DNA of 32,514 nucleotides from the NCBI GenBank assembly GCA_038831915.1, contig JAWBKB010000018.1, positions 1-32,514 of the forward strand, written 5' to 3'. The stretch comes from Candidatus Caldarchaeum sp. (GTDB lineage Archaea; Thermoproteota; Nitrososphaeria_A; Caldarchaeales; Caldarchaeaceae). Below the pieces are notes generated by a model. That model was not told the origin of the DNA, searched no databases, and worked only from the letters and a program-made list of their open reading frames with translations. Each line of letters starts with the position of its first letter. The stretch's first letter is position 1. Shown piece after piece: positions 320-1,561 of this stretch. A program made the translations under genes and the position numbers.

Positions 320-525
320 GAACAGAAGTCCGAGGGAGCGGGGCTGGAGAACCCCCCGGCCTCCGCATGGATTACCCGGCCAGGCCCTCATCCCTTCAGC
401 TCCTACACGCTCACACGTCTCGGAGCCTCATACAGGGCGTTAGACGCCGGAACCCATACCCCCGGACATGGAGCCGCACGGCCCCACATCCGGGGAAACA
501 ACCCGGGACATGGGACCATGCGGCT
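320..525 (-). ncRNA. Candidate structured RNA (long G-U-rich hairpin, K-turn-like hairpin with GNRA loop)
   Basis: Minus strand AGCCGCAUGGUCCCA/UGGGGCCGUGCGGCU stem (472-525); CCCU-GUAU-GAGGCUCC...GGAGCUGA-AGGG with ACGU-GUGA-GCGU cap (392-437); GGGGUU-CUCC-AGCCCC hairpin. Confidence 0.5.
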
Positions 526-545
526 TGAAAGAAAAGGGTTGGGGG

Positions 546-1418
546 TTAGGTGTTTTTGATGCTGTCTATAGTCATCTGGATTTCGTTTATGTATTGTTTT
601 CGTTCGTCGTCTTTGAGTCTTAATGCTTCCACGGTCGCTGAGAAGGTTTCCATCAGTATTCCAAGAAACTTGTCTCTCATGTATTGGTTGTCTTCCGGCG
701 AGGTGCTGGCGCCGTTGGCAATCATTTTCTTCGTGCCGTAGGCGTTTTTCAACAGATACACCCCTAGGTAGCTTGTTCTAAGGCATGCCGGCATCGATTG
801 GTACGCTTTGACGAGGTTTTGGAATAGGCCGTTCAGGTCTCCTTTACCCGCACACCGAGAGGCTTTCAGCATATGCCATACGTATCGTAGCAACCCGTGT
901 CCTTCATCGTCCTTGATAGATTTAACTATTTCAGGCCTTGACAGTTGCTCCAAGACCCAGCTCCTGAAGTCAACGTTCTTCCAGACGCGGAAGTTCTCCG
1001 GAGGCTGACCCTGTCTAAGAAGCTTCTGGAAACGCTTTCTACCTATTTTCGTGTAAGCGAAGGGAGTCAGCGACCTTCTAAGCACTCCAAGCCTGTCGGC
1101 GGCGAACGCATGACCAATCCTTGAAACGTAGACGACTGCTCTCCGTCCGAGTAAAACCGGTTTGTCGTACCTCAGCTTGTTGTGAGGCCTGTGGAAAACC
1201 ATCTTCGGCATGCCGCGGCAGTAAGCTAGAGCTAACGGCTCGTACTCAGGCTCTCTTGAAACAGGCAGGTCGTGGGACCAGTGAAACCAGAAGAACACCA
1301 CCGTGAAGTCGCCGAACTCAACAACCTCGTAGACGACCTCGATTAAGCTCTTAAGCTCGTTCCACGGAAACCTTGGAACATAGACCACAGGCAGAGTCCA
1401 TTTCTCCTTACGAGTCAT
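546..1418 (-). CDS. Hypothetical protein, N-terminal region weakly NPP1/Vps62-like, helical C-terminus
   Basis: 290-aa ORF with SD GGAGGT; motifs FWFHWSHD..EYEP and RAVVYVSRIGHAF. Confidence 0.7.
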   Translation of the reverse strand: MTRKEKWTLPVVYVPRFPWNELKSLIEVVYEVVEFGDFTVVFFWFHWSHDLPVSREPEYEPLALAYCRGMPKMVFHRPHNKLRYDKPVLLGRRAVVYVSRIGHAFAADRLGVLRRSLTPFAYTKIGRKRFQKLLRQGQPPENFRVWKNVDFRSWVLEQLSRPEIVKSIKDDEGHGLLRYVWHMLKASRCAGKGDLNGLFQNLVKAYQSMPACLRTSYLGVYLLKNAYGTKKMIANGASTSPEDNQYMRDKFLGILMETFSATVEALRLKDDERKQYINEIQMTIDSIKNT

Positions 1419-1423
1419 CTCTT

Positions 1424-1561
1424 AACCTCCGGAGCGGCCTCTGGGAGAGGCTCCCGGCTGGGAGACACGTCCCGCCGGGATACTTCTCCCGACGAGACGC
1501 GCTCCATGGAAAAAATGCCGGGAGCGCCACGGTTATGAGCCGTGGACGCCGCCCGGAGGTT
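1424..1561 (-). promoter_or_regulatory. Multi-branch structured leader sequestering the SD of ORF 546-1418
   Basis: Outer stem AACCUCCGGGCGGC/GCCGCUCCGGAGGUU, arms CCACGG-CUCAUAA-CCGUGG, GCUCCCGGC/GCCGGGAGC, GGGAGA/UCUCCC, CCUCU-CCC-AGAGG. Confidence 0.5.

Follow-up and report, generated by a model that had tools for sequence, protein, structure and literature searches.

Two conserved structured RNAs bracket a hypervariable NLP-fold gene in Caldarchaeales

Introduction

In type I toxin systems such as hok/sok, the mRNA of a mobile element is kept inert by a long-range pairing that buries its Shine-Dalgarno (SD) sequence. Phages of the T4 type carry promoter-early stem-loops, 'mobile regulatory cassettes' of ~50-60 bp that are DNA or promoter elements and flank variable open reading frames (ORFs). 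To our knowledge, few structured RNAs of archaeal mobile elements have been described. Here we report on a window of 32,514 nucleotides (nt), the whole stretch of DNA analysed, which forms the initial 32.5 kb of contig 18 in a genome of Candidatus Caldarchaeum sp. (1.59 Mb, archaeal, 95.6% complete). Near its left end, two conserved, strand-specific structured RNAs of no known family, a leader RNA of ~210 nt and a downstream RNA of ~360 nt, bracket a hypervariable gene of 290 codons whose product has an NLP-like fold.

Bacteria and phages are known to couple translation by RNA unfolding, and passages of PMC12548453 name the MS2 coat-lysis/replicase genes, f1 genes VII-IX and E. coli rpmI-rplT as examples. 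According to the same passages, the ribosome-binding site of the downstream cistron lies in a secondary structure situated partly in or next to the end of the upstream cistron, and is opened by the translating or terminating ribosome (PMC12548453). The Caldarchaeales locus has much the same layout, which would suggest coupling here too, but a conserved multi-helix domain of 130 or 360 nt separates the two strands of the helix, a second helix reaches codons 9-14 of the gene, and the host is a thermophilic archaeon.

The locus also recalls hok/sok in that a long-range pairing buries the SD of a mobile-element mRNA. The protein, however, has 290 amino acids (aa) and is not a small hydrophobic peptide, its toxicity is a proposal, and no antisense RNA was found, no search for one having been made. 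As with the T4 stem-loops, conserved regulatory sequences flank highly variable ORFs and apparently mediate their shuffling, but the flanks are here large folded RNA domains with covariation. The downstream RNA shares with GOLLD, ROOL, HEARO and OLE a similar size class (~360 nt), many helices, conserved loops and carriage by mobile elements; it differs in being archaeal and intercistronic, in its closing by an SD-containing helix and in matching no Rfam model. Lastly, residues ~4-165 of the protein resemble NLP/NPP1 and Vps62-like proteins in fold. Identity is only 12-14%, Pfam NPP1 is not matched at E<=0.1, and the protein, the product of a mobile-element gene in an archaeon, has a variable helical domain in addition. 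A limited literature search found no prior description of these RNAs, and the part of PMC6563490 covered by a term search held no mention of non-coding RNA.

Structure of the two RNAs

Coordinates throughout are positions in the window, and the ORF and both RNAs lie on the minus strand. A sequence-only reading of this DNA had placed a 290-aa ORF at 546-1418, with a GC-rich multi-stem element upstream and a cluster of hairpins downstream. The ORF stands as claimed. Both elements are present with other limits, the downstream one covering 184-543 instead of 320-525 and the upstream one gaining an outer helix between 1570-1585 and 1378-1393. The features are as follows.

546-1418, minus strand: ORF of 290 aa, with an N-terminal NLP/Vps62-like beta-sandwich (~residues 4-165) and a C-terminal helical bundle (~170-290); isoelectric point (pI) 9.7
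1378-1585, minus strand: leader RNA, ~210 nt, made up of the outer helix P0 and the core P1-P4
1570-1585, minus strand: 5' strand of P0, an inverted repeat that pairs with 1378-1393 and holds an invariant TAG at 1580-1582
1428-1561, minus strand: leader core, with helix P1, hairpin P2, long hairpin P3/P3a and hairpin P4
1425-1430, minus strand: SD GGAGGU of the ORF, 6 nt before its ATG (1416-1418) and sequestered in P1
1378-1393, minus strand: 3' strand of P0, coincident with codons 9-14 of the ORF (LPVVYV)
184-543, minus strand: downstream structured RNA, ~360 nt, a closing helix around a 21-bp hairpin, a branched domain and a 3' arm
411-414, minus strand: GUGA tetraloop of the branched domain of the downstream RNA
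237-240 opposite 293-295, minus strand: invariant AGUA/GAA internal loop in the 3' arm of the downstream RNA
178-185, minus strand: SD GGAGGUGA of the next cistron, partly overlapping the 3' strand of the closing helix
1-171, minus strand: 5' part of the next gene, for a small CxxC protein, cut by the contig end; its start is M48 of the listed frame
1586-1782, minus strand: remnant of an upstream zinc (Zn)-ribbon ORF (..LCDQCF..) without start codon, whose frame continues through the leader; counterparts exist in G012 and G009

The comparative evidence comes from 19 loci, in two related genomes (G009 and G012) and 17 metagenome sequences. Several are identical copies, so that ~12 distinct versions remain, in four clades (A-D). 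Leader alignments contain 12 sequences and the alignment of the downstream RNA (A4) contains 10. Consensus structures were judged against the same alignments with pairing partners slid by 1-3 columns and against 500 shuffles.

Among the inter-ORF stretches surveyed, the leader is the most strongly folded. Minus-strand positions 1419-1570 fold at -94.2 kcal/mol (z -8.68), a value equalled by 0/200 dinucleotide shuffles, and the plus strand reaches z -7.80. A survey of 14 inter-ORF gaps (116 tiles of 150 nt, both strands, 30 mononucleotide shuffles each) singled out the leader tile at z -9.3, followed by an overlapping tile at -3.0 and then by -2.4, around a median of 0.0. The earlier impression that intergenic DNA of the host holds no comparable density of stems is thus borne out for these tiles, the stretch 1-545, covered by chance ORFs, lying outside the set. 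Local G+C is 0.62-0.64 at the elements, against ~0.5 around them.

Each of the 12 leader sequences, folded singly, gives the same architecture from P0 to P4. P0 joins GUAGACCRCGGGC to the codons for LPVVY over 16-17 bp. It is paired in 93% of cells (n=12), and four of its pairs have changed on both sides. The covariation falls at synonymous sites of the Pro and Tyr codons, one position showing three pair types. In P1, which is 98% paired (n=12), the anti-SD strand AACCUCCGGGCGG is matched to CCGCUCCGGAGGUU, or CCGCYCCGGAGGU across the sequences, and P3/P3a is a long hairpin with an invariant U6 internal loop. In the model-fitted alignment A9, 91% of cells are paired against 39-57% when slid; this alignment is biased toward the structure, and a MAFFT alignment gives 86% against 38-51%. 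Sixteen pairs of A9 have changed on both sides (nine of them in P3a), compared with 1-6 when slid, and 0/500 shuffles reach the observed value. The covariance model of P1-P4 (R1) scores 117 bits on the sense strand of the window (1419-1565) and 21.9 bits on the antisense strand; across sequences the ranges are 112-163 and 17-23 bits, for a model that was built on the sense strand.

In the downstream RNA, minus-strand 300-545, folded alone, reaches -129.9 kcal/mol (z -4.68) and the plus strand -109.6 kcal/mol (z -4.37). On A4, RNAalifold predicts 113 pairs with 95.4% of cells paired (39-57% when slid). Twenty-nine pairs have changed on both sides (4-9 when slid), and 0/500 shuffles reach the observed values for four of five measures. 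The closing helices are paired in 100% of cells (n=10). The suggestion that G-U pairs tie the downstream stems to the transcript of the ORF was confirmed on alignments, the sense strand showing 233 G-U cells against 14 A-C cells and a consensus energy of -143 kcal/mol against -86 kcal/mol for the reverse complement. As many as 47/124 unpaired columns are invariant, among them the GUGA tetraloop and the AGUA/GAA internal loop. The latter, an invariant GAA facing AGUA, we take to be a candidate loop-E or sarcin-ricin-type motif. An alignment that included the divergent copy of G040 (A11) gave a poorer closing helix with RNAalifold, probably an alignment artefact, and was excluded from the counts. 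In one clade, a near-perfect hairpin of 48 nt is inserted at a variable tip of the downstream RNA (L103 and L104, A4 columns 121-176).

At 37 °C the two RNAs fold at -94 and -228 kcal/mol, and longer constructs still fold at -49 and -85 kcal/mol at 75 °C. For the leader SD, the predicted probability of being unpaired rises from 0.004 at 37 °C through 0.034 at 75 °C to 0.088 at 85 °C; for the SD of the downstream RNA it is 0.21 at 75 °C and 0.41 at 85 °C.

Shine-Dalgarno and stop-codon geometry

The two RNAs share a design in which the 3' strand of the closing helix carries the SD of the following cistron and the 5' strand lies at the preceding stop codon. The 3' end of the 16S rRNA of this genome reads GGAUCACCUCCA; it is complementary to GGAGGU in the leader and, over 8 nt, to GGAGGUGA at the downstream RNA, so each SD is both matched to the ribosome and paired in a conserved helix, as expected of a coupling element. 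In 10/10 sequences the TAA of the ORF occupies the same alignment column, and the closing helix of the downstream RNA begins 0-6 nt after it.

The geometry is less regular at the leader. The upstream Zn-ribbon ORF stops at the invariant TAG in P0 at 5/9 loci, 18-25 nt before it at 2/9 and inside P1 at 1/9, and P1 begins 23-26 nt past the TAG. The frame in which this ORF runs through the 5' part of the leader differs between G012 and G009; the conservation of that part therefore does not come from coding.

Distribution, linkage and families

Flanking structure beside the relatives of the ORF, which the sequence-only reading had proposed to compare, is conserved with covariation once homologues are collected and flanks aligned. 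Nucleotide profile searches with nhmmer recovered the downstream RNA at 19/19 loci (13 full length, 6 cut by the locus end) and the leader at 15/19, or 15/16 of those with room for it. Three of the misses have no such room; the fourth (L110, 2290-2480) has lost the core by a deletion that joins the outer helix's 5' strand directly to about codon 35. Both elements directly adjoin the ORF throughout the related loci, and the flanks in G012 and G009 align to the window as DNA at 72-81%.

Within the class, matches to the leader model are confined to the 3/76 genomes in which the ORF is present too. BLAST found the downstream RNA as a full copy in 4 genomes and as an 88-nt fragment in 1; with one more match of 26 nt it is found in 6/76 genomes of the class and 6/401 sampled in the phylum, all belonging to one order. 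One full copy, in G040, stands at a contig start, with no recognisable ORF in the preceding 263 nt. In G014 (contig 9, L010:1499-1586), the last ~88 nt of the downstream RNA including its SD end lie directly before an unrelated 272-aa ORF beside a host gene.

As the sequence-only reading had supposed, neither RNA belongs to a recognised family. Rfam 15 gave no match at the gathering threshold over the whole window. At E<=5 it listed five matches of 15.9-18.8 bits in 1-1750, with gathering scores of 35-70, and at E<=1 on seven related loci two unrelated matches, neither recurrent. Rfam holds no family for this locus from Caldarchaeales. Identity with archaeal signal recognition particle (SRP) RNA or RNase P RNA was ruled out, the genome's own copies scoring above the cut-off on C1 and C7. 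A scan of the window for tRNA and transfer-messenger RNA found none. The tandem RNA repeats that precede the toxin gene of a type III (ToxIN-like) toxin-antitoxin system are absent, positions 1-4000 holding just two chance direct repeats of two copies each.

Exchange of alleles between constant flanks

While the flanks are 93-99% identical within RNA clades, the protein falls to ~30%. The RNAs of clade A are 93-97% identical and its proteins 33-56%; in clade B the figures are 93% and 30%; in clade D, RNAs 96-99% identical enclose three protein types at ~30% identity. L109 combines clade-A flanks with a protein 61% identical to that of the clade-B locus L020.

The boundary is sharp. In comparisons of the window with L097, L095 and L098, the 3' half to third of the ORF is unalignable, and 3-9 nt from the stop codon the DNA is again 95-97% identical. 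G009 and G012 belong to the same genus, and in 35 kb of synteny, otherwise 69-96% identical, no unalignable gap between them is as large as the ORF (905 nt, L015:15325-16230). Another gap, 405 nt long, lies after the RNA, at a place where G009 holds extra small CxxC ORFs. In one hot-spring DNA run, summed contig depth, a rough guide only, was 640-2200 on the flanks against mostly 9-43 on this ORF allele, and contigs of the same run join the flanks across other sequence. Of 21 rows listed in a search of sequencing runs, 12, from DNA runs with flank variants, contain 27-64% of the sampled words.

Contigs from RNA libraries (two libraries of one study) cover 1-560, and one also covers 558-856 of the ORF, the contigs giving neither strand nor ends. 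They are a weak hint that the downstream RNA and the next gene are transcribed. Over the leader and the ORF's 5' half there were no such contigs, an absence to which no meaning is attached.

The encoded protein

The earlier description of the ORF as an orphan holds as regards its rarity; relatives nonetheless exist. Among 1.84 billion representatives, 16 were found at E<=1e-3, and among 5.8 billion clusters the family comprises 6 proteins, the window's own counted. Homologues occur in 2/40 related genomes and at the 17 metagenome loci, and a contig search across genomes added nothing to the two genomes already known (G009, G012). Relatives carry the source label Candidatus Caldarchaeum. Identity to the window's protein is 41% in G012 and 34% in G009. 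Viral contigs yielded no protein relative; a search of them with two DNA motifs gave 3 and 70 places, where blastn returned a single 26-nt match that was taken as chance. The closest metagenome relative (73% identity, L094:33-206) is broken by a stop after 57 codons, for which a frameshift, a pseudogene or a sequencing error may be responsible.

Proteins of the NLP family are marked by a conserved GHRHDWE heptapeptide and a secretion signal. An AlphaFold2 model of the ORF product, from an alignment of 12 homologues, has a mean predicted confidence (pLDDT) of 87.7. In a Foldseek search of the PDB with it, the top 15 listed matches to residues ~4-165 were all NLP (E 3e-4 to 7.5e-3, probability 1.00), and VIA-align placed 3st1_A at Z 9.4 with a root-mean-square deviation of 3.1 over 133 residues, ahead of a second match at Z 9.1 (133-137 residues in all). 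In BFVD the model matched a Megaviridae (giant-virus) 'vacuolar protein sorting-associated protein'. On the strength of the model, these residues can confidently be assigned an NLP/Vps62-like fold, whereas sequence profiles do not place them in NPP1. A Pfam scan at E<=0.1 listed no NPP1 (PF05630) and only a 14-bit TetR_C_22, a profile search of PDB sequences gave no NLP and nothing under E 0.2, and the PHROGs and PADLOC libraries held no family matching the ORF. The ESM Atlas was of no use: its feature search gave no usable match, its own model was poor (pLDDT 0.42) and all structure rows had a template-modelling (TM) score <0.5.

Invariant residues of the alignment are W44, F45, D50, E60, P61, R77, P78 and H79, and the motifs WFxxxxD and E-x-EP bear at most a loose resemblance to the NLP heptapeptide. 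No signal peptide was evident by eye, no dedicated tool having been run. The C-terminal helical bundle, hypervariable among loci, gave generic structure matches only. All 12 homologues tested are basic (pI 8.9-10.1).

Possible roles of the RNAs

Because an SD lies in each closing helix and the preceding stop codon at its other strand, we favour control of translation in cis. The leader and the downstream RNA would lock or couple translation between cistrons and at the same time provide anchors for recombination, a reading to which we give an even chance of being right. The ORF would belong to a co-directional operon of a Caldarchaeales mobile element, with the RNA domains embedded at cistron junctions of the sense transcript. 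The closing helices would keep the ORF, and likewise the next gene, translationally silent, P0 adding a helix between upstream sequence and codons 9-14. They could be opened by ribosomes finishing the preceding cistron or by a factor bound to the conserved cores ('RNA unfolding' coupling). The nearly invariant flanks might then serve as homology anchors for the exchange of very different ORF alleles.

Several observations weigh against such a lock. A ribosome stopping at the TAG would open P0, but P1 starts another 23-26 nt on, and the Zn-ribbon frame of clade A passes the TAG without stopping there. In the window itself the upstream ORF is a remnant without start codon, and coupling therefore cannot work here as proposed. 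The SD of the downstream RNA precedes just a mini-ORF of 28-32 codons in clades C and D, and its closing helix is only partly stable at growth-like temperatures (see the value at 75 °C above). A simple lock needs no conserved core of 130 or 360 nt; together with the many invariant unpaired columns, these oversized cores point to a further function. Finally, the metatranscriptome support comes as contigs.

The size of the cores also recommends the view that both domains are processed out as stable non-coding RNAs, possibly acting in a complex with the basic ORF protein, be it a ribonucleoprotein (RNP), an RNA antitoxin or regulator of a toxic protein, or a scaffold, the SD pairing being secondary. 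We consider this unlikely, though well worth keeping in view. The cores are far larger than a lock needs, their unpaired motifs are invariant, all homologues are basic and the leader is strictly linked to the ORF. The full downstream RNA of G040 without a recognisable ORF before it and the RNA-library contigs over the downstream RNA and the next gene are likewise in keeping with it. No processing motif, such as a bulge-helix-bulge, was seen by eye at the closing helix, however, and tandem repeats like those of type III antitoxins are absent. The RNAs are constant while the protein drops to ~30% identity, which argues against a specific, co-adapted binding to the variable part of the protein; specific contact would need the more conserved N-terminal domain. 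The RNP of protein and RNAs that the sequence-only reading had envisaged is weakened by the same observation. A bolder proposal sees in the RNAs a new class from archaeal mobile elements, with an independent function, for example as ribozyme, RNP component or switch that senses a ligand or protein. They would gate a hypervariable cytolysin-like NLP-fold protein, the whole forming an RNA-controlled conflict module for addiction, exclusion or anti-defence. This proposal is improbable and can be held only tentatively. A conflict role is suggested by hypervariability, mobile context and a tight translational lock taken together, and to call the protein a conflict-type protein in need of tight control is speculation.

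On another view the elements are chiefly protective or processing structures that keep the mRNA stable or insulated from one cistron to the next in the heat, have no translational role and owe their conservation to being recombination anchors as well. Such elements would fit the intercistronic position, the very stable folds and the pattern of conservation in flanks and ORF. They would leave unexplained why the SD and first codons are the paired partners in both elements, why covariation falls at synonymous codon sites and why unpaired motifs are invariant, and we regard this as decidedly unlikely. That the flanks act as DNA, whether as a replication origin, a single-strand initiation or promoter hairpin or a site-specific recombination site, is less probable by far. 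Both strands of the leader do fold well, replication-type genes lie near in relatives (a DinG/XPD-like helicase and a PriL-like domain) and the variable region has a sharp boundary at the ORF stop. Against this stand the sense bias of G-U over A-C cells and of the consensus energy, the much higher sense scores of the leader model (subject to its construction on that strand), and the geometry of SD and stop codons, which is meaningless for a DNA element. The folded strand is moreover the coding strand, while a single-strand promoter would be expected on the template strand. Since G-T pairs are tolerated in single-stranded DNA, the bias does no more than weaken a role as DNA. Chance products of GC-rich palindromic sequence, to which the high local G+C might point, are refuted by the shuffle z-scores and by compensatory changes in ~12 distinct sequences of four clades, measured against slid and shuffled controls.

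Whichever role applies, covariation supports both RNA motifs well enough for new families to be seeded from them. Their design is unusual, with large folded domains at cistron junctions and closing helices that join one gene's stop to the next gene's ribosome-binding site. Between almost identical flanks, alleles of an NLP-fold protein at ~30% identity replace one another, which makes the locus a natural cassette. It offers a system in which translational coupling and control by RNA can be tested in thermophilic archaea, a group where this mechanism has received little study. Should the conflict reading be true, the RNAs would also lead to a conflict gene, and an RNA-controlled conflict module would be of a kind not yet described in archaea.

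Genomic context and further observations

An integrated mobile element around the ORF had been assumed from the window. A mobile-element-like region is indeed present in G009 and G012, but the window's own genome holds just a fragment of the element, at the end of a contig, and integration can be judged in relatives only. Its conserved part stops near 1700-1780, and the window ORFs beyond have no counterpart in related loci. Neighbours of the module in G009 and G012 include a 936-aa HerA/FtsK-like ATPase, a 1328-aa ORF, a split HerA-like ATPase and Zn-finger proteins, together with the DinG/XPD-like helicase, the PriL-like domain and many small ORFs without assigned family. The order that recurs in metagenomes is ATPase, Zn-finger, Zn-ribbon, leader, ORF, RNA, small proteins or methyltransferase, and helicase. 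Integrated status is plausible; neither attachment sites nor an integrase were found. A query with the related element's DinG-like helicase returned no match in this 95.6%-complete genome. A sliding window of G+C over the G009 region singled out no other elements.

In G009 the helicase, three genes downstream (L015:17490-19088), matches the PADLOC model of a type IV-A CRISPR-associated DinG at E 2e-42.

The next gene shares 96-100% identity with its counterparts behind the RNA in L098 and L097, and 47% with the one in G009. L098 (1195-1421) and an RNA-library contig carry an insertion of 225 nt between the downstream RNA and the next ORF (at window 166/167), with a weak fold (z -1.85). In clades C and D the mini-ORF that follows the SD of the downstream RNA has a stop overlapping a second SD. 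The order at L099:1796-2916, shared by L100, L104 and L106, is mini-ORF, a 49-codon ORF with a hydrophobic stretch (by eye) and a methyltransferase gene. The methyltransferase, of UPF0020/N6_N4_Mtase type, overlaps the 49-codon ORF by ATGA and is followed by a small Zn protein and the DinG/XPD-like helicase. The extra 240-255 nt after the RNA in these clades, which contain the 49-codon ORF, were considered as a further structured RNA and ruled out (z +0.39).

Just past the conserved part, the plus strand of the window carries two ORFs of ~195 aa (1633-2232 and 2467-3057). Neither matches a family in Pfam, PHROGs or PADLOC; a CxxC...CxxC zinc ribbon closes the second. Elsewhere, the 16S gene on contig 4 of G000 (958-2850, L116) spans 1893 nt against a model of 1478 positions, the ~400 nt extra being possibly an intron.

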